This document shows, piece after piece, positions 3,481 through 30,735 of a stretch of 64,000 nt of DNA. The translations under genes were made by a program, and so were the position numbers. The DNA comes from Planctomycetota bacterium. GTDB taxonomy: Bacteria > Planctomycetota > B15-G4 > SIAN01. The notes beneath the pieces are model-generated. The model searched no databases. It was not told where the DNA came from and saw only the letters and a list, made by a program, of their open reading frames with translations. How positions within the stretch are numbered: the first letter of the stretch is position 1; every line of letters begins with the position of its first letter. The stretch spans positions 57,454-121,453 of the forward strand of contig JANQQL010000047.1 in NCBI GenBank assembly GCA_028289345.1, given 5' to 3'.

Positions 3481-4446
3481 ATGAGCCTGACGCTGTTGTC
3501 CCTGTTGCTCGCCGTCGCGGATCCCGTGCCGGCAGCCGAGATGCCGAACGATGTCCTCACCGTGTCCGCATCGATGGACTCGGGGGAGTGGACCCCGGGA
3601 TCCGACCATGTGCTGAATCTCGAAGTCACCATGAAGGACGGCTGGTCCGCGTCGACTTCGGGAATTCCCCAGCCGCTGCTGCAGATCCAGAAGCCCGCCT
3701 CGGTGACCCTGGAAGGCAAGGTCCTGACGAAATTCGAAGACCTGGCCCGCAACGAGTTCCTCCAGGCTCCCTATGAGCGCCTGATCGAAGGGACCCGCGC
3801 CGAGATCGGCTTTACAGTGAAAGGCGATCCAAGGGACGGAGAAACCCTGGCATTCACCGTCCTCGCCTACGTCTCCGACGATCCGGACTCTCGCGGCTGG
3901 TTCGTGCGCAAGCGCATGGAAGTCGAGCTGAAGCCAGACGCCGTCGCCAAAGAGGTGTCGGCGGAAGACTCCACCTGGGGAGACTCGGGTGTGCTGCAGA
4001 TCGGGGACGACGCCGAGTCTTTCGAACTGCCTCGCGCCGACGAGTCCTACCTGGTCATGGACGACTACCTGTACGAGAAGAACATCGTCGTCACCACCTA
4101 TCGCGCCTACTGGTGACCGTTCTGCATCGAACAGCTCGGTGAGCTGTCAGACTTCCGGCAACAATTCGAGGACCGCGACACCGTCGTCATCGCCATTGCT
4201 CAAGAGGACACCGACCTCGTGACCCACGGCAAGATCCTGGAGAAGTTCCCCGAGGACCTGCCTTTCCAGCTGGTCGCGGATGTCGACCAGGAGCAAACCA
4301 AGTCCTACGATCGGACCACGACGTACCTGATCGACAAGGAAGGGGTGGTGCGAGAAATCTTCCCCGCCATGATCCACATGCGTCCGACCTGGCACTCGGT
4401 GCTGAATCGTCTGGACGAAATCCTCGGCGCAGAGGCCGCGGAGTAA
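3481..4446 (+). CDS. predicted selenoprotein: periplasmic TlpA/Prx-like thiol:disulfide oxidoreductase with in-frame TGA (Sec) at 4114-4116 within a W-U-P-F-C redox motif
   Basis: RBS aaggagag, then ATG 3481 and a signal peptide MSLTLLSLLLAVA. The ORF appears to stop at TGA 4114-4116, but the same frame continues with no stop and no start codon for 34 codons. It encodes the remainder of a peroxiredoxin/TlpA-like thioredoxin fold (PFCIEQLGELSDFRQQFEDRDTVVIAIA...TYLIDKEGVVREIF) and ends at TAA 4444-4446. The TGA sits exactly where the first Cys of the WCxxC motif is expected (YRAYW-TGA-PFC). Confidence 0.6.
4131..4147 (+). other. candidate bacterial SECIS-like hairpin (acagctc-GGU-gagctgt) 15 nt downstream of the in-frame TGA
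   Basis: A perfect 7-bp stem with a GGU apical loop starts 15 nt 3' of UGA 4114-4116. Spacing and G/U-containing loop are compatible with a SelB-binding element. Confidence 0.35.
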
Positions 4447-21942: not shown

Positions 21943-24741
21943 TCACGATCCGACGGCCCGCTCGATTCGCTCGACCAGCTGCTGCAGGCGTGGGTCCCCC
22001 CCGAGCGCTTCCTGCAAGGGGCCACCGCGCTGCCACTGAAGGCTGTCGAGGGTCCAGCCAGGATCCTCGTCCGCCATCTCCTCGAGGATCATCAAGGCCT
22101 GGTCCAGGTCTCCGGCCACCGCGTGAGCCATCGACTCACAGACTTGCAGTCGGCCACGAAGCCTTTGTTTCAGGAACTCGGGAACGGCAAGCTCCTCCAG
22201 CATGCCGAGCCCGCGGTCCAGAAACTCCTCGGTGGGCGCCAGATCTCCGAGAGCGGCGGCTGACTCACAAGCAATCAGGCAATCGCTGAACTCTTCGAAA
22301 CTGCCCGGTTCCGCGGAATCGAGCGAGCGCTCCGACAAATCCCTCAGGGATTCCCAGTCTCCGAGGACTCGAGTCACCGCACGATCCAACTCGGTCACTG
22401 TTCGCGGGGCTTCGCCGAGCGCTTCTTGACGCAGTCGTTCTCCGACTTTCTCGTAGGTGTTGCCCGGCGAGGAATAGCTGTCCGCAAAGCTGGTCACTTG
22501 CCCCGACTCGCTTCGAGTGAAGAACACCCATCGTCCTTGTTCGCGATTGAGGAAGAGATCCTGGTCGACCGCTTCGAAGGAACGGTCCCAGATCTCAATC
22601 TGACCCGGCTCCACCGAAGTGACCTCGGTGAATCTCGAAGCCTCCCAACCCGCCCCCGGGGGACAGCCGTGACAGAAGAGGTTGCCGACATAGGTCCCGG
22701 TGTAGGCGGCAGTGTCGACCTCCAGACGCGGCCGGTCCACATCGATCGATGTCCTGCCCTCGGGAAACCAGTGGTTCATCAACGCACGAGTGACCGCCCA
22801 CGCAAGCCGCGGTCGAGGTCCCGTTTCTCCATCTCGGTTCATGAGCACCACGGCGCCCTTGCCTTGACCGGGCAGAAAGAAGAAGTCGCCCGAGTATCCC
22901 TGCATGGTTCCTCCATGCTGAAGGACTCGCTGACCGTTGTGCATTTCTTCCCAGAAGCCGAAAGAGAAGCCGGGGATTTCTGGATGAGCACGGAACTGTG
23001 AGGTGCGAAGCTGATTCGCCATCTCGCTCGAAAACAGTCGAGCGGTTCCACAGGACCCATCGCCGCTCAAAGCAACCAAAAGACGGGCCATGTCCGACGC
23101 CGTGGAGTCGATCGACGAGGCCGGCAAAGAAGCGTAGTACTCATATCCTTGTCGAACGTGGCGTCCCGCAGTGAAGCCGTAGCCGGTGGCGAGCTCGTCC
23201 CGCCGATCGTCGGGCACTTCCACGAATGAGCGGGACATGCCAAGAGGCTCGAAGACCAGCCGAGTCATCGCCACTCCGTAGTCCACATCCAGGCGCGCTT
23301 CCAGCAAGTACCCGAGCAGAGAAATCCCGTAGGTGTCGTAGCAACTTTCCCGTCCGGGAGGACGAACACGGCGCAGGTCCCGTTCCAGAAAATCTCCGAG
23401 CGAGACCCGCTGGGCCGGGTCATAGAACAACCGGTTGGTCCCCACCTGGTCGAATCCTGCCGTGTGGGTCATCAAGTGATCGATGGTGACCGGCGAGTCG
23501 AATCTTGTGTCGACATGGAACTGCTCGAGGTAGGTGTTCACATCGGCTTCCCGAGACAGGAGGCCTTGATCCACCGCCGCCAACACACCGATCGCGCTGA
23601 CCGCCTTCGAGATCGACCCAATGCGAAACAAGGTCTCTTCCGCATCCACCGGAGACTCGGTCTCCAGGTCCGCCACGCCATATCCTTGCAGGTACGCAAT
23701 TCGGCCTTCGTCCACCACGGCCACGGCAGACCCAGGAAGGGAATCATCCAGCATCTGTTGAGGAATGATCGACTCGAGTAGCTCTCGATACTCTTCGCCG
23801 TCCGGCGTCACCGGCTTGACGGTCTCCACTGCGGCTTCCTCGCTCGCCGCGCGCTTCATGAAGCCCAGCCGAGCGGGCGCCGCAAGCAACACGGGCGCTG
23901 GAGAACTGTCCGCGGAACTGGTGGCGACCGTCGGGCTTTTCGGTGGAGTGCGCGGTGGCAAGGCTCTGCGCACCACGAGGGGGGAAGCCTCCGAGGCAGA
24001 GCCGACGGCAGCGGACGGATTCGAAGCGAGGACGGAAGGAGCTTCGTCGAGGGACGGCAAGACCGCAGAGTCCGCCTCCTTCCTTCCGACCATGATGAAG
24101 AACCCGAGAGCGGCCACCGCGATCGCTCCTGCCAGAGCTTGGAAGGACCAATCTCGGCCCGCCACTCGTTCGGAAGACTTCGCAAGGGGAAGCGTTCCGG
24201 GGACACAGAACACTGCCAATCCCCGGCGAATCGCAGATGGCTCATGCTTGCGTTGAAGCTCCTCGCGCAGCATCTGCAGTCCACGACGCAACCGGGTTTT
24301 GACCGTTTGCAACGGGACCTCCAGACGCTGGGCCATCTGAGGAGGAGTCAGCCCTTCGTAGTAACGCAGGTAAACGCTCGTTCGATAGGGCTCCCGCAAT
24401 TCGCGCAGGGACTTCACGAGGTCTTGAACCAGCTCCATGCGAGCTTGGATCTCGGCCGGGTCGGTCGTCGACGAATCTCGAAGTCGCTGATCGTGGTAGG
24501 CCCGCTCCCGAAGGAGCCGCCGCTCGTCTCCCAGCTGCATGCTGCGAATCGCATTGCGAGCGACTTGCTTCAGCCAGGCCCCAAGGTTTCCTTGGGCCGG
24601 GGGGCTCCCCAACGCAGTGACCCAGGTCTGCTGCACCACGTCGTCGATCGGTGCTTCTCGAGAAATCAGGTCTCGGGCGATGCGACGCAGGCGATCCCGA
24701 TGGCGCAGCAGGTCCTCGGCAGTCAAGGCTTGTTCACTCAT
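21943..24741 (-). CDS. ECF-type sigma-70 domain fused to a TM helix, a periplasmic beta-lactamase/serine-hydrolase-like domain and a C-terminal helical domain
   Basis: ATG 24739-24741 (MSEQALTAEDLL). Sigma region 2 is DDVVQQTWVTAL and region 4 is YLRYYEGLTPPQMAQRLEVPLQTVKTRLRRGL. A single TM helix (AIAVAALGFFIMVG) is followed by a Pro/Ser linker. SxxK motif (GSISKAVSAIG) and HGG motif are present. Confidence 0.75.
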   Translation of the reverse strand: MSEQALTAEDLLRHRDRLRRIARDLISREAPIDDVVQQTWVTALGSPPAQGNLGAWLKQVARNAIRSMQLGDERRLLRERAYHDQRLRDSSTTDPAEIQARMELVQDLVKSLRELREPYRTSVYLRYYEGLTPPQMAQRLEVPLQTVKTRLRRGLQMLREELQRKHEPSAIRRGLAVFCVPGTLPLAKSSERVAGRDWSFQALAGAIAVAALGFFIMVGRKEADSAVLPSLDEAPSVLASNPSAAVGSASEASPLVVRRALPPRTPPKSPTVATSSADSSPAPVLLAAPARLGFMKRAASEEAAVETVKPVTPDGEEYRELLESIIPQQMLDDSLPGSAVAVVDEGRIAYLQGYGVADLETESPVDAEETLFRIGSISKAVSAIGVLAAVDQGLLSREADVNTYLEQFHVDTRFDSPVTIDHLMTHTAGFDQVGTNRLFYDPAQRVSLGDFLERDLRRVRPPGRESCYDTYGISLLGYLLEARLDVDYGVAMTRLVFEPLGMSRSFVEVPDDRRDELATGYGFTAGRHVRQGYEYYASLPASSIDSTASDMARLLVALSGDGSCGTARLFSSEMANQLRTSQFRAHPEIPGFSFGFWEEMHNGQRVLQHGGTMQGYSGDFFFLPGQGKGAVVLMNRDGETGPRPRLAWAVTRALMNHWFPEGRTSIDVDRPRLEVDTAAYTGTYVGNLFCHGCPPGAGWEASRFTEVTSVEPGQIEIWDRSFEAVDQDLFLNREQGRWVFFTRSESGQVTSFADSYSSPGNTYEKVGERLRQEALGEAPRTVTELDRAVTRVLGDWESLRDLSERSLDSAEPGSFEEFSDCLIACESAAALGDLAPTEEFLDRGLGMLEELAVPEFLKQRLRGRLQVCESMAHAVAGDLDQALMILEEMADEDPGWTLDSLQWQRGGPLQEALGGDPRLQQLVERIERAVGS

Positions 24742-24902
24742 CCCGCTCTCACTTGGTTCCGGCAAAGGGTCGGGTGGAAAACACCCAACGGAAGCAGCGA
24801 TGGGCACCGACCACCCGTCTCCCCCCAGCAGGCCGGGTCCCGGTCGCTCCGCCTCATGAACCTCGCCGGGCGGGATTGGAGTTCAGGAATTCGAAGACTT
24901 TC

Positions 24903-25440: not shown

Positions 25441-26379
25441 TCAGCGGCTCAATAGATCCTGAAGAGCCGAAGACAACTCGGGGAACTGAAACTCGAACCC
25501 GGCCTCGGGAAGGCGGCGGGACACGCAGTAGCGGCCGTACAAGACAAGCTCGGGATCGGTCCGCAAGAACAACGGAGCGGCGATTCGCACCATCCAGGAG
25601 GCCGCCGGAAGTCCCACGGGCTGATGAACCACGCGGCGCAGCTTCGCCATGAATTCGCGGTGGGACACCGGTTTGGGAGCGGTGACCAAGTAGGCACCGT
25701 TCATGCGCTCGTCTTCGATCGCCTGGACGAAGAACTGATTCATGTCGGCTTCGTGAAGCCAGCTGATCCCCTGTCGACCGCTTCCGACTCGGCCCCCCAA
25801 TCCCCAACGCGCCAGCCGGGCCAGCTTTCCAAGAGCGCCCCCGCTTCTTCCGAGAACGAAACTGGTTCGGGCAATGACAGTGCGCACGCCATCGGGAACC
25901 GAATCGTGCATCGCTTGCTCCCACGCCTGACCGACTTGCGGCGCGAGACCGTATCCGAACGCGGAATCTTCCTCGCAAACCGCGTCTTCTCCCGGATCTC
26001 CGTAGTTATGCGCCGTGGACATCTGCACCCAGACAGGCGGAGGTTGGGCCGCGTTCTGCAATGCCTGCCCGAGAACTCGGGTCGACTCAACTCGGGAACG
26101 GAGGATCTGGTCGCAATGATCAGGGGTTTTGATGCAATCGACCGAACGGCCGGCCAGATTGACCACGGCTCGAGCGCCCTCGAGATGCTTCGCCCATTCC
26201 CCGAGTCGCCTCCCGTCCCAGGGCGACCACGTCCACGGTCCTTTCCGGGACGGCTCCTGCCGCGAGATGATCACGACCGAACGGCCGCGCTCCCCAAGAT
26301 GGACCGCGAGGTTCTGACCAAGAAAGCCGGATCCACCCGTGATCACGACTTTGTCGTCCGTTGGGGTGCCGTGGTTCAT
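25441..26379 (-). CDS. TIGR01777-family NAD-dependent epimerase/dehydratase (YfcH-like)
   Basis: Rossmann motif [14 protein letters not shown]. Typical YfcH/SDR39U1 length and sequence. ATG at 26377-26379. Confidence 0.8.
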
Positions 26380-26644
26380 GGCTCTCACTTTCGTGTTCGC
26401 GCACCACCGGTGGGGTCAGCCGGAAGACAGATTCTGCCGGCAATCGACCGAACTCGACAGTCTCTCCAAAAATGGGGCTGCAAAGCCTGTTCCCAACCCC
26501 CTCAACTCCCACGCTCCTTGGGGCCGAGCCGCACACCCTGTTTTTCGCAGAAACCATGCAGAATCTTCGGGCTTGGCGGGCTCTCCCGCATGGAGTCCGA
26601 CGCGGACTCGAGGACCATTTCTTTCACCGACCGGAGAGTCAGCA

Positions 26645-27796
26645 ATGTCAGGGCTTTGCTTGGGCATCTTCCTTTCGAGCGTGCTTGTCGCAGTGACACA
26701 AGCCCCCCCTTCCGAGGGCGGAGTCCTTCTCGCCGTCCATGAAGAAGCTTCTCTCGAGCTTCAAGCATTCTGGGATCCCTGCAAAGAGTCCAAATACGGC
26801 CTCTTCGAGCGCACCAAAGCAATCGCCTCGATTCAACCGGTTCACGAGACGAACTTGTACTTGGCTTCTTCGTTCCAAGCATTTCTTCCCGAGCACCGGG
26901 TCGAGGTCGGCCAAGTTTGGAAAGTGAAAGAGGAGGCCGTGTTGCCGTTCTTGCGACAACTGCATCCGGGTGCGACTGCCCATCTCCATCACGGCAGCCC
27001 GGGCAGCACCGGCGCTCGAGCCTGCTTGCGAGCGATCAACGCCACCAAAGCCGAGGTTCTGATTCGCGCCCATGCGGAGTTTCGGATCGAAGACGAGATC
27101 TTCTTCACCCCGGCGCAGTTCGAAGGACGTCTGGTCCTCGATCAGGAAACGGGCATGGTCGATTCGTTTCGACTCTTCTTGCCCAGTCGAAACACCAACG
27201 TCGACATCAACGTGGGTTCCGTGGATTCTTCGGGGCCCTTCCCTGAGTCTCGTTCCTACGAGGCAGACATTGGATGGGTGCCGCGGCTGGAAGTGACCAG
27301 CGGTCCGAGTCTTCCCCCACACTGGGTCGACTCCATCTCGCTCGAGAAAGCGAGGAGCCGTCTCCGGGCCCCGTTCTATGCATTCGCCAAGATCGACTGG
27401 ATGCCGTTCGAAAGCGCGGTCCAAGAATCCATCGACCTCGGCCTACCGCTCCACTTGATCATCCTGTTCGGCTGCCTCGACGACGAATCCTGCTGAGGCA
27501 GCGGCAAGACACTGAGGGCGGGTCCGCTCTCGAACCCCAGGATCATCAAGACACTGAATGAAGACTTCATCAACACATGGATCCTCGCCAAGGACTTGGA
27601 GCACCTCGCGGAACACTCTCCCGACGAAGCCATTCGTGAACGGGCCGCCCATTGCGGCAAGCGCTACAAGTACCCGGTCGACAGTCAGATTCTGGCTCCG
27701 AACGGCGATCTCCTGAGCCAGGTAGGAGCGAACGAGATCATGGGACTGGATCTGGGGAATCGCTATTGGCGGTTCCTGGAGAGTGCCTACGAGTGA
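26645..27796 (+). CDS. predicted selenoprotein: secreted protein whose C-terminal thioredoxin-like fold spans an in-frame TGA (Sec) at 27494-27496 (motif C-U-G-S)
   Basis: ATG 26645 with a signal peptide (MSGLCLGIFLSSVLVAVTQA). The ORF nominally ends at TGA 27494, but the same frame continues for 99 codons with no start and no stop. It encodes Trx-fold-like sequence (…IDW…LHLIILFGCLDDESC-TGA-GSGKTLRAG…NEDFINTWILAKD…YKYPVDSQILAPNGDLL…). It ends at a TGA that overlaps the ATG of the next gene (TGATG at 27794-27798). Confidence 0.5.
27514..27531 (+). other. candidate SECIS-like hairpin (gagggcg-GGUC-cgctctc, including one G.U pair) 17 nt downstream of the in-frame TGA
   Basis: A 7-8 bp stem with a G/U-containing apical loop lies about 20-27 nt 3' of UGA 27494-27496. 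Confidence 0.3.
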
Positions 27797-30735
27797 TGGT
27801 CGATTCCAACAACCCGTGCGACGAGCTGTTTCGACATGCGGGATTCGTGAAGCACCTGGCGCGAGACCTGCGCAGCGACCCAAACTCTTCGGACGACCTG
27901 GTGCAGGACACGTGGGTGGTTGCCCTGCAGTCCCCGCCGAGTTCCACCACCGGCGTCAAAGGATGGCTCAAGCAGGTGTGCCGTCGCTTGGCGATTCGGG
28001 AAGGGCGAACCCAGGAACGACGGTTGCGCCGGGAGCAAGCCACGGCTTCTCACGAACTCTCCCGAACAACGGTCGAAGAATGCGCCTGGCGCGAAACTCT
28101 CCGTCAAGTGACGGATTGTGTGCTGGCCCTCTCGGAGCCCAACCGTCAGGTCATTCTGTTGCACTACTACGAAGGCCTTTCGCCCGAAGCGATTGCCAAT
28201 CGACTGGAGGTATCTCGTGCCACGATCTACTCGCGGTTGAGTCGCGGCCTCGAACAACTTCGTCACGCGCTCGATCAAAAGAACCGGGGAAACCGGAGCG
28301 CGTGGGTGCAAGCGCTCGCTCCCCTCACTCTGGATCTCCCCACTCGGAGAAGATCCACGGACAGCGATTCGACGACGCTGTCCATTGGGAGAGTGTGGGT
28401 CGGGGTCGCGCTCTCGGGACTACTTGTCGCAACCGGAGTTTGGTGGTGGCGAGACGGCAAACTCGGAGACACGGGTGACGGGCCACCATCGCCCTCGTCG
28501 TTCATCAGTGAGACCCGAACCAACACCCAAAGCGTCGAGAAAAGCGACCAAAGGCTCGAGGCCCCCGTTCGAGAACTCGCTTCCTCCAAAGCGGCGACCG
28601 GGGACTCGCGACAAGTCGAATCCCCTCCTGTTCCTCGAGAAGACGAGGCTTCCGCGCGCACGGTGGTGCGAATGGTGTGGCAAGACGACGGCACTCCCCT
28701 TGGTGATCGCTGGGTCCAGATCGTTCCCCGGAAACCCAGCGCCGCGGAGTTTCCGGCTTTGAAGACCGACGACCAGGGAGAGCTTCCTCTTCCTGACGGG
28801 GGAGCCGACATTCTTGCTTTGGTCGATCCAGTCGCTCACCAAACTCTGAAGCTGCCCGAGCACCCCGCCGCCTTCGACACCATCCGTTGGGAAATCCCGG
28901 CGGGCTTGGACGTGTCAGGAACCGTCGCCGACATCCGGGGACATCCCGTCGGCAAGGCAAGCATTTGGATTGGTCATCCGGAACGGACGTTGCCGCCGGT
29001 TTTGGTCGATGTTTCGCACGCCCAGGGAGAGTTTCATTTGCGAGGAGTGGCTCCGGAGTCTCGCTTGTGCGCGATGGCGTCGGGCTATCAGGCGTCTCGC
29101 TTTCAAAGTGTCGAGGGAATTCCAGGATCTTCCGTCCGCGCCACGGTGATCCTCGCCCCGGGTTGCGGAGTGCTGACCGGCCAGGTGCTCGATGAATCGG
29201 GACGCCCGGTCCCCGGGGCCAGGATTCGGATGAAAGGGCGACATGAAGCCGACCTTTATCGGTTCGATGGAGTCGCACTCCACGATCTACCTCCCTGGGA
29301 AACACGAGCCGACTCAAAGGGGCGCTATCGCTTTGACTCCCTGGTCCCGGGCCCAGTGCAGCTCGTGGTGACCGCCCCCGGCTATGCCCCGACGGCCATG
29401 CAGCGGCAGCTTCCGCGTCAACAGTCGGAACAGGATCTCGTTTTGACCAAAGGAGTCTGCATCTCCGGACAAGTCCAAGACCTGTCCGGTGCCCCCGTGG
29501 CGGACGCGGTGATCGAGATGCGAGACACCAAGTCTCCCTGGCAGCAAATGGTTCGCGTCGATGCCGCGGGTACGTACGAGCTTCTGCACTTGCCGAACAG
29601 CGCGCAGCTTGTTGTTCGCAGCCCCTCGGCCGGAGTGGCACGGCGACTGATTGCGGAAGGATCCGGGCGGGATCGAACTTGGAATCCGGTTCTCCATCCA
29701 GGCAGAACAGTGCATGGCCGGCTGCAAGACTCTTCGGGTCAACCTCTGGGTGGTCGGACGATTCACGCCGTGGGCAACGTGCCGAGGGGGGACCAGCGGT
29801 CGCTGTGGAGCAGTCAGGCTCGGACCGATGCAACCGGTGAGTTTCGCCTTCTCGGGTGTCCCGATGAGCCGCTCCAGCTGGAGATCCTACGTCACGTTCA
29901 AATCGGCGACATCGAACTGGCCGTTCGAATCGAACCAAACGATCCCATGCCATTGACCTTGGTCCTGGAGCCGACCCAAACACCGAGTGCGTGGATTCGC
30001 GGCTTTCTGGTCGATCCCGCGGGGCAACCGATCGTTGGCAGAGTCGAGGGGTTCTCCCACGGCCTCACCGCGGGAAGCACACTCTTCCAGGAAGCCACCA
30101 CGGATTCTCGCGGTCACTTCCTGCTCGGTCCCCTCGCTCCCGGGCTCTGGCAACTCCGCGCCCGCCGCCACCATGGACCTCTCGTCTCCCTGTCCCGGAT
30201 CAACGTCGGATCCGGAGAAACGGTCGATCTGGGCAAGTCGCTCGTTGAGTTCTCGGGATGGCTGGAGATCCGAACAGAACGGCCCAGGGAGCCGGTTTTC
30301 GAACGGTTTCAAGTCATCGGCAATGGCAACCTGCAAAACCATGCCATCTCACAGGACCGAATCGCCCTTTCTCCCGGCGAGTACACGGTCACCTTGTGGG
30401 GACGCAACACCGCGCTCGTCACCCATGAAGTCACGATCGCACCGCAACAGCTGACCACCCTCGACGTCCGGGGAACTGCGGGCACGCTGTGTCGCTTTCG
30501 GTTTCAGATTGCTGAAGGGAGGATCTCCCACACAATCGGATTCTCTCTCTTCTCCGGGGACCGACTACTTGGTCACTGGTGGCACTCGGTCCAGGAATCC
30601 AAGACCCGCGAGCAACGCTTGTCACCGGGCTCCTACGACCTCGAAATCCATGGAACCGGCCGCCCCACCTTTCGCCGGAGGGTGGAAGTGCGTCCGGGAC
30701 AGCCAGAGCTCACCGAACAGCTCGTCATCGAGTGA
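27796..30735 (+). CDS. ECF-type sigma-70 domain fused to a TM helix and about five periplasmic carboxypeptidase-regulatory-like (CarboxypepD_reg/prealbumin-fold) repeats
   Basis: ATG 27796 (MVDSNNPCDELFRH) aligns with the start of its paralog 21943..24741. Sigma region 4 is LLHYYEGLSPEAIANRLEVSRATIYSRLSRGL. TM helix VWVGVALSGLLVATGVWWW. Repeated GxVxDxxGxPVxGAxI motifs follow. Confidence 0.75.
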   Translation: MVDSNNPCDELFRHAGFVKHLARDLRSDPNSSDDLVQDTWVVALQSPPSSTTGVKGWLKQVCRRLAIREGRTQERRLRREQATASHELSRTTVEECAWRETLRQVTDCVLALSEPNRQVILLHYYEGLSPEAIANRLEVSRATIYSRLSRGLEQLRHALDQKNRGNRSAWVQALAPLTLDLPTRRRSTDSDSTTLSIGRVWVGVALSGLLVATGVWWWRDGKLGDTGDGPPSPSSFISETRTNTQSVEKSDQRLEAPVRELASSKAATGDSRQVESPPVPREDEASARTVVRMVWQDDGTPLGDRWVQIVPRKPSAAEFPALKTDDQGELPLPDGGADILALVDPVAHQTLKLPEHPAAFDTIRWEIPAGLDVSGTVADIRGHPVGKASIWIGHPERTLPPVLVDVSHAQGEFHLRGVAPESRLCAMASGYQASRFQSVEGIPGSSVRATVILAPGCGVLTGQVLDESGRPVPGARIRMKGRHEADLYRFDGVALHDLPPWETRADSKGRYRFDSLVPGPVQLVVTAPGYAPTAMQRQLPRQQSEQDLVLTKGVCISGQVQDLSGAPVADAVIEMRDTKSPWQQMVRVDAAGTYELLHLPNSAQLVVRSPSAGVARRLIAEGSGRDRTWNPVLHPGRTVHGRLQDSSGQPLGGRTIHAVGNVPRGDQRSLWSSQARTDATGEFRLLGCPDEPLQLEILRHVQIGDIELAVRIEPNDPMPLTLVLEPTQTPSAWIRGFLVDPAGQPIVGRVEGFSHGLTAGSTLFQEATTDSRGHFLLGPLAPGLWQLRARRHHGPLVSLSRINVGSGETVDLGKSLVEFSGWLEIRTERPREPVFERFQVIGNGNLQNHAISQDRIALSPGEYTVTLWGRNTALVTHEVTIAPQQLTTLDVRGTAGTLCRFRFQIAEGRISHTIGFSLFSGDRLLGHWWHSVQESKTREQRLSPGSYDLEIHGTGRPTFRRRVEVRPGQPELTEQLVIE

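Follow-up and report, generated by a model that had tools for sequence, protein, structure and literature searches.

A putative bacterial homologue of selenoprotein N with an in-frame UGA codon and a conserved SECIS-like hairpin in a planctomycete contig

Selenoprotein N (SELENON, also SEPN1) is a redox protein of the eukaryotic endoplasmic reticulum (ER) membrane and is mutated in the SEPN1-related myopathies. The SCUG motif, in which U stands for selenocysteine (Sec), is the published hallmark of SelN, and the SelN literature itself compares this motif with the GCUG centre of thioredoxin reductase (PMC12839072). In bacteria, the closest described systems are the Prx-, Trx-, DsbA- and TlpA-like selenoproteins, in which the redox motif of a thioredoxin fold contains an in-frame UGA, directly followed by a bacterial Sec insertion sequence (bSECIS), and for which Cys homologues exist (PMC13188914). 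Sec recoding by bSECIS elements and the SELENON family are both already known. Here, a locus is described that resembles both systems. It is situated on a stretch of 64,000 nucleotides from contig JANQQL010000047.1 of a bacterium belonging to the Planctomycetota, and this whole stretch is called the window in the following. At positions 26645-27796 of the window, an open frame is interrupted by an in-frame TGA, and we assign a probability of about 0.92 to the reading that this region is one single gene for an exported selenoprotein of 383 residues, a bacterial homologue of SELENON. The UGA at 27494 very likely encodes Sec in this homologue.

The relationship to SELENON is supported by several protein comparisons. 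Over approximately 300 residues, the window product is 31% identical to human SELENON (BLASTP, E = 4e-49), and the Sec columns of the two proteins are aligned. The SCUG motif is present in the window as DDES-C-[TGA]-G-S-G, the six positions S-C-U-G-S-G are identical in both proteins, and the similarity extends into the flanks, where DDESCUGSGKTLR, NEDFINTWIL and YKYPVDS of the window correspond to DDQSCUGSGRTLR, NESFISTWSL and YSFPVEM of the human protein. The N-terminal part of the window product also matched the SELENON orthologue of the wombat (P0373, UniRef A0A4X2KGP4) with E = 6e-19 in an HMMER search over 1.8 billion proteins. The homology spans the beta-rich and the thioredoxin-like domains and excludes the EF-hand and N-terminal region of the animal protein. 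The alignment begins at about residue 166 of human SELENON, beyond its EF-hand region, and no EF-hand was found in the window protein (Pfam) or in the relatives checked, i.e. unlike SELENON the bacterial protein has neither an EF-hand nor the long N-terminal region. Judged from these alignments, the predicted product of 383 residues is a homologue of eukaryotic SELENON, with the TGA placed exactly on the Sec of the SCUG motif.

A protein search returned 155 bacterial homologues, nearly all of which comprise about 280 residues and terminate with ...DDESC; this same TGA is thus where gene callers end them. When the exact N-terminal part of the window product served as the query of an exhaustive HMMER search, 320 clusters at 50% identity were obtained, most of them ending at the same residue. 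One homologue (P0014) carries the JGI name 'selenoprotein N', hence at least one automated pipeline has already attached this label. Profile searches with the 383-residue product, in which U was replaced by C, had been proposed in an earlier note on this DNA, which was made from its letters alone; these scans gave no match in Pfam and NCBIfam. The UGSC-containing family was rejected as a candidate, because the motif of that family is UGSC and not UGSG and its NCBIfam model NF041046 gave no match.

At the nucleotide level, direct reading of the sequence shows that the frame is opened by ATG 26645 and contains 283 codons before the TGA 27494-27496, which is its nominal end. Past this TGA it stays open for 99 further codons up to the TGA 27794-27796, which shares bases with the ATG 27796 of the downstream gene in a TGATG. 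The earliest start-like codon downstream of the internal TGA is TTG 27596, which is listed in the table of open reading frames (ORFs) as the entry 27596..27796. The earlier note had described the nominal stop, the 99 open codons, the TTG and the overlap with a downstream gene for an extracytoplasmic function (ECF) sigma factor fusion in the same way, and the sequence bears it out on each of these points. The peptide around the internal TGA reads ...LHLIILFGCLDDESC-U-GSGKTLRAGPLSNPRIIKTLNEDFINTWILAKD...YKYPVDSQILAPNGDLL. The mechanical ORF list begins the ORF earlier, at GTG 26339. We favour ATG 26645 as the start, given the annotated database protein P0001 (283 aa), to which the N-terminal part of the window product is identical, and the Shine-Dalgarno-like sequence in front of this codon. 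The features of the gene are as follows:

26633..26638 (+): Shine-Dalgarno-like GGAGAG, 6 nt 5' of the ATG, from direct sequence reading
26645..27493 (+): coding part 1, 283 codons, ending ...DDESC, with the probable signal peptide, the SelN-specific beta-rich domain, and the first helices and beta1 of the thioredoxin-like domain
26645..26704 (+): probable signal peptide MSGLCLGIFLSSVLVAVTQA, hydrophobic N-terminus
26750..27340 (+): N-terminal beta-rich domain with the motifs RxHAEF, TPAQFxG and NVDxN, which are common to eukaryotic SELENON
27377..27793 (+): thioredoxin-like domain across the TGA, which falls between beta1 and alpha1
27494..27496 (+): UGA very likely read as selenocysteine, U of the S-C-U-G motif, in a column shared with about 40 homologous loci and aligned with the Sec of human SELENON
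27497..27793 (+): coding part 2, 99 codons, which would be translated only upon Sec insertion; protein sequence kept in all homologues
27513..27532 (+): predicted bacterial SECIS hairpin, stem 27513-27520 / 27525-27532, apical loop GGUC 27521-27524
27794..27796 (+): true stop TGA, overlapping ATG 27796; the syntenic locus L061 has the same overlap

The strongest support for Sec insertion comes from the comparison of homologous loci. A TGA was found in the same column at about 40 of them, which belong to at least two phyla (Planctomycetota, Poribacteria, and metagenomes), for example at L001 from a metagenome-assembled genome of the Planctomycetota and at L002 and L003 from Poribacteria, all with a conserved downstream frame. 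The TGA forms were recovered from metagenomes by a custom degenerate DNA pattern containing the TGA, which yielded 51 loci, 39 of them true family members, of which one looks eukaryotic, and 12 chance matches; a separate genome scan, the patterns of which required Cys, gave four loci. Cys occupies the TGA column in the full-length proteins P0035, P0053 and P0054 as well as at the loci L004, L056 and L057, and the alignment runs continuously through it. The collected family proteins number 382, of which 225 stop at ...SC and eight continue with Cys. As far as can be judged from these sequences, Sec forms vastly outnumber Cys forms in the bacterial family, similar to what has been reported for algal SELENON.

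Gene callers treat the locus and its relatives everywhere as two separate genes. In the databases (P0121-P0240), two hypothetical proteins take the place of one, namely the N-terminal part with about 280 aa and the part behind the TGA, a separate protein or ORF of about 80-110 aa. On this view, translation would genuinely terminate at the TGA, and the 66-99 codons behind it, read for example from TTG 27596, would specify an independent small protein. However, the conservation already sets in with the first codon past the TGA (GSGKxLRAGPLS), far ahead of any start codon, the Cys-form homologues are single continuous proteins, and eukaryotic SELENON has its Sec at the same column of a single chain. 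Moreover, a stop at this position would split the thioredoxin fold, with beta1 and alpha1 on either side. Two genes are thus very unlikely, and the two-part annotation is a systematic mis-annotation. It is also true that only one base separates TGA from a Cys codon (TGC or TGT), which might have been mutated in a pseudogene or miscalled during sequencing or assembly. In this regard, three of the 39 metagenome members have disrupted downstream frames (L014 at 1848, L027 and L041, with one extra nucleotide in the hairpin, a premature stop, or a shift of the frame past the TGA), and these three may be pseudogenes or low-coverage assembly errors. Such an origin is, however, extremely improbable for the TGA of the window, because it recurs at independent loci from different phyla and samples, the large share of family proteins ending ...SC points to the same codon, the frame beyond the TGA is uninterrupted and constrained at the protein level, and the SECIS is conserved only in TGA forms.

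A further explanation accepts the read-through and dispenses with selenium. In this case, a near-cognate or suppressor tRNA (for Trp, Cys or Gly) or a reassigned code would serve the UGA, and the hairpin would merely stimulate read-through. One homologue, P0342, indeed has Trp (TGG) at the column, and the Sec machinery of the genome is inferred rather than found in the window. On the other hand, 38 of the 47 long open frames of the window end in TGA, which is its main stop, therefore the genetic code is not reassigned; nearly all non-TGA homologues have Cys at the column and not Trp or Gly; the hairpin fits specific bSECIS constraints, including a G-G/U loop start at 16-37 nt; and the eukaryotic homologue is an established selenoprotein. 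Read-through without selenium is hence about as improbable as the two-gene arrangement. It could finally be assumed that the nucleotides behind the TGA are conserved solely because of the conserved peptide LRAGPLS that they encode, or because of codon bias, and that there is no RNA element at all, since this peptide is kept in most homologues including some Cys forms. This is contradicted by synonymous sites (AGR, GCG, GGU, CCG, CUC) that are frozen in the AT-rich Poribacteria and GC-rich Planctomycetota alike, by the Cys-form L056, which encodes the same LRAGPLS peptide via CGU GCC GGG CCG CUG and is without the hairpin, and by compensatory changes in the stem. In the Cys forms L004 and L057, the hairpin is lost and the peptide is lost, too. 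A purely peptide-based explanation is therefore highly unlikely, and the evidence for Sec insertion with the help of an RNA element can be considered in detail.

The hairpin comprises 7 bp (8 with a U.G pair) and a GGUC loop; counted as 7 bp, it starts 17 nt past the TGA, and its loop is located 24 nt past the UGA. A stretch of 67 nt around it folds no better than shuffled sequences (z = +0.27), while the isolated hairpin, with -11.5 kcal/mol, beats them (z = -2.4, 1 of 200 shuffles). Taken alone, the single sequence is only suggestive, and the decisive evidence is comparative. The published bSECIS model demands a loop of 3-9 nt, a stem of 4-16 bp, a G in the first two loop positions followed by G or U, a distance of 16-37 nt from the UGA and a minimum free energy of -7.5 kcal/mol or lower (PMC13188914). 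The window hairpin satisfies this model with GGUC, 7-8 bp, 24 nt and -10.7 to -11.5 kcal/mol. A filter made from these constraints, in our own version, was passed by 38 of 40 Sec loci of the family, none of three Cys loci, and 53 of 1693 (3.1%) TGA trinucleotides of the window, which has 61% G+C and of which all TGA trinucleotides served as background.

The element GAGRGCG-GGUC-CGCUCUC occurs in the same register at 36 of 40 distinct Sec loci from AT-rich Poribacteria to GC-rich Planctomycetota, the proteins of which are only 35-50% identical. It codes for R-A-G-P-L with fixed codons, and the synonymous-site entropy at codons +8 to +11 is 0.18-0.34, namely 0.19 for Ala (GCG in 34 of 35), 0.18 for Gly (GGU, 37 of 38), 0.31 for Pro (CCG, 34 of 36) and 0.34 for Leu (CUC, 37 of 39), compared with 1.3-1.8 for similarly conserved Pro, Gly, Leu and Ser elsewhere. 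For Arg (AGR, 37 of 40) the entropy is 1.38, since only the choice of AGR over CGN is fixed and the third base varies (AGA 19, AGG 18). In an alignment of 20 sequences, pairing was 100% and both partners had changed in two pairs (C-G to U-A and A-U to C-G); slid controls dropped to 35-71% pairing. The compensatory changes convert GCG/CGC to GUG/CAC and GAG/CUC to GCG/CGC. Further variants with AGUU loops exist in poribacterial paralogues, and the hairpin of L032, although different, agrees with the bSECIS model as well. Based on this pattern of conservation, the hairpin 27513-27532 is a predicted SECIS. Its dimensions and position had been given correctly in the earlier note, and the suggestion made there that it serves the UGA gains support from the frozen synonymous sites, the compensatory changes and the loss in Cys forms.

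Two side observations concern relatives of the gene. The metagenome locus L043, at 2840 (+), encodes the animal-like LWGALDDESCUGSGRTLR without a bacterial-type SECIS and is probably an algal or other eukaryotic SELENON. In Poribacteria, SelN paralogues form tandem arrays, with four copies in 7 kb in L002 (1747-6993) and two flanking an ECF-sigma gene in L003 (3004-6953); all of these paralogues with the column in view have TGA, and some combine AGUU loops with an extra C-terminal domain, which is also present in P0342.

Structure models were obtained for the Cys-form P0035 and for the exact N-terminal part of the window product. In the AlphaFold model of P0035 (pLDDT 92), a thioredoxin fold with beta-alpha-beta-alpha-beta-beta-alpha topology is predicted, in which beta1 precedes the Cys-Cys pair and alpha1 directly follows it. 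The redox motif is thereby located at the N-terminus of alpha1, and the Cys-Sec pair would occupy the place where thioredoxin folds carry CxxC. A CxxC, UxxC or CxxU motif is not present in the family; it has vicinal C-U (C-C in Cys forms), and neither +3 nor -3 holds a second conserved Cys. A sequence search of the PDB gave only chance matches to TTLL6, and no solved structure was found that matches by sequence or fold; the SelN-specific beta-rich domain is without a solved structural relative. The N-terminus of the window protein is hydrophobic, has low pLDDT in the model and resembles the leaders of homologues. It is probably a signal peptide of the cleavable type, and the protein is therefore probably periplasmic; some bacterial relatives (P0333, P0343, P0375) have an N-terminal transmembrane (TM)-like helix with a linker. 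Together with the recurrence of the TGA and the Cys homologues, the modelled fold agrees with the early proposal of a Sec-UGA inside a thioredoxin-like fold, and the conserved downstream frame with that of genuine coding read-through. Two checks suggested at that time also came out positively, as orthologues hold either TGA or Cys at the column and the hairpin obeys the published bSECIS constraints.

By analogy to the standard bacterial pathway, the following mechanism might be envisaged. The hairpin would act as SECIS and recruit SelB with Sec-tRNA(Sec) to the ribosome paused at UGA 27494, which would be decoded as Sec, and translation would then run through the 99 codons to the real stop. 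Following export to the periplasm, as suggested by the leader and the homologues, the Cys-Sec pair would most likely cycle between the selenol/thiol and the selenenylsulfide state, similar to SELENON and the GCUG centre of thioredoxin reductase. The protein could then act as oxidoreductase or redox sensor on oxidised cysteines of a client protein, much as has been proposed for SELENON and its SCUG site in the ER lumen. Such a function as periplasmic oxidoreductase is, by analogy, somewhat favoured.

Some points weigh against the interpretation as a bacterial SELENON homologue with Sec. Neither the 64-kb window nor the fetched loci yielded selA, selB, selC or selD. ARAGORN detected no tRNA in the window, including tRNA-Sec, no Rfam family exceeded the threshold there, among them no SECIS family, and tblastn with a SelD sequence gave no hit in the window or the fetched loci. 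Sec machinery was thus not found in the window and the Sec trait of the organism is therefore inferred. The human SELENON query used in BLASTP was not taken from a database record, but it is validated by the wombat orthologue, an independent database sequence, which is 58% identical to it over 548 residues. The signal peptide call comes from visual inspection, and the gene neighbourhoods offer no conserved reductant partner such as DsbD or a thioredoxin reductase. The association with ECF sigma genes, as a plain count of contexts, applies to roughly 9 of about 25 and is recurrent but not universal.

Indirect support for the Sec trait is given by a second candidate in the window. The gene 3481-4443 (+) contains an in-frame TGA at 4114-4116 in the context YW-U-PFC, within an AhpC/TSA domain (PF00578) that spans the stop (E = 1.7e-17). 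A hairpin ACAGCUC-GGU-GAGCUGU is located 21 nt downstream and passes the bSECIS filter. The earlier note had counted on another in-frame TGA at a redox motif within the 64 kb, and this one is indeed present. Prx-like UxxC proteins are a recognised bacterial selenoprotein family (PMC13188914), and 3481-4443 is, from its sequence, a probable second selenoprotein gene of this known family.

The gene overlapped by the true stop of the SelN-like gene encodes a large sigma factor fusion:

27796..30735 (+): downstream, putatively translationally coupled gene for an ECF sigma factor (regions 2 and 4) fused to a TM helix and five CarboxypepD_reg repeats (Pfam)

The same overlapping stop/start arrangement exists at L061. 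ECF sigma genes follow the SelN-like gene in L059 and L038 and precede it in L001 and L056, and in L003 an ECF sigma gene separates two SelN paralogues. Moreover, P0268, P0277 and L004 (2047-4100) unite an ECF sigma domain, a TM helix and SelN-like domains in one polypeptide, P0277 being a Sec version, and P0268 and L004 Cys versions. No sigma gene is found nearby in L057, L058, L060 and several metagenome contigs. A link to ECF sigma factors is drawn because the true stop overlaps the start of the sigma fusion and relatives adjoin or are fused with ECF sigma. The arrangement in the window suggests, as a hypothesis, a selenium-dependent translational coupling to the sigma gene, while a role in ECF-sigma signalling by extracytoplasmic redox sensing is a tentative and rather doubtful assumption. 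Still less likely is the far-reaching scenario in which SelN-like proteins are extracytoplasmic redox-sensing partners of ECF sigma factors, in some lineages as a fused domain, in which read-through at UGA 27494 gates sigma translation, and in which the family is ancestral to SELENON with the 'SRE' hairpin of the eukaryotic gene as a relic of the bacterial SECIS. If it were true, a periplasmic sigma-factor signalling module would be the ancestor of an ER calcium/redox sensor that is implicated in human myopathy.

Two other neighbours may be mentioned. A second long ECF-sigma fusion, with a beta-lactamase-family domain, lies within 7 kb at 21943-24807 (-). The upstream divergent neighbour at 25441-26388 (-) encodes an NAD-dependent epimerase/DUF1731 protein (YfcH-like), which is not conserved beside SelN genes at other loci.

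In comparison with eukaryotic SELENON, the catalytic part of the bacterial protein would likewise be placed topologically outside the cytosol, in the periplasm instead of the ER lumen. However, a probable signal peptide would take the place of the type II membrane anchor, and the bacterial genes are linked to or fused with ECF sigma and form the tandem arrays of Poribacteria mentioned above. The predicted SECIS is of the bacterial type and located in the ORF, unlike the SECIS in the 3'-UTR (untranslated region) of SELENON, and an element of the eukaryotic type was not found by Rfam in the window. Both genes have a hairpin beside the UGA, which in the eukaryotic gene is the 'SRE', although the comparison of this hairpin with the bSECIS is speculative. 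The SECIS of E. coli fdhF has a short G+C-rich stem with a GGUC-type loop soon after the UGA. The window hairpin differs from it in stem sequence and spacing, with 24 nt between UGA and loop, and no bulged U is evident. In contrast to the Prx-, Trx-, DsbA- and TlpA-like selenoproteins with their UxxC or CxxU, the window protein has the vicinal C-U and an extra large N-terminal domain without a Pfam or NCBIfam model. The adjacent Cys-Sec pair followed by Gly, which may form a selenenylsulfide, is shared with thioredoxin reductase, whereas there the motif is situated on the flexible C-terminal tail of a flavoprotein and in the window protein inside a thioredoxin fold, with no flavin domain. The thioredoxin-like domains of DsbH, Thioredoxin_7, anterior-gradient (AGR2/3) and DsbD-gamma proteins show only 10-20% identity, with no Pfam match; these proteins use CxxC or CxxS, have no Sec and are without the SelN beta-rich domain.

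The earlier note had left the family assignment open and regarded the family as possibly new. This holds only in part, since the family is selenoprotein N, known in eukaryotes, yet no report of a bacterial SelN selenoprotein was found in the searchable literature, the coverage of which is incomplete. An inventory of 119 prokaryotic selenoprotein families from May 2026 has no SelN entry and names only SelD, GPX, deiodinase-like, SELENOW-like and MsrA proteins as families common to bacteria and eukaryotes (PMC13188914). Bacteria are not mentioned in a SelN review from January 2026 (PMC12839072), and Aravind's ER-calcium paper mentions of SelN only the EF-hand. Apparent matches to 'selenoprotein N' in two 2026 papers were rejected, as they read 'selenoprotein name' and 'selenoprotein neighborhoods'.

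The family is thus a likely addition to the prokaryotic selenoproteome and would join the short list of families shared between bacteria and eukaryotes. It is unusual in that Sec forms far exceed Cys forms, and hundreds of its database entries are mis-annotated as two hypothetical proteins. From the repeated occurrence of ECF sigma genes beside it, or fused to it, a testable role in the redox signalling of the envelope can be proposed. Furthermore, SELENON is a human disease gene, the reaction, substrates and structure of which are poorly defined. An abundant bacterial family with the same SCUG centre, natural Cys variants and high-confidence models, which comprises 320 clusters, would make this protein tractable for enzymology and crystallography.

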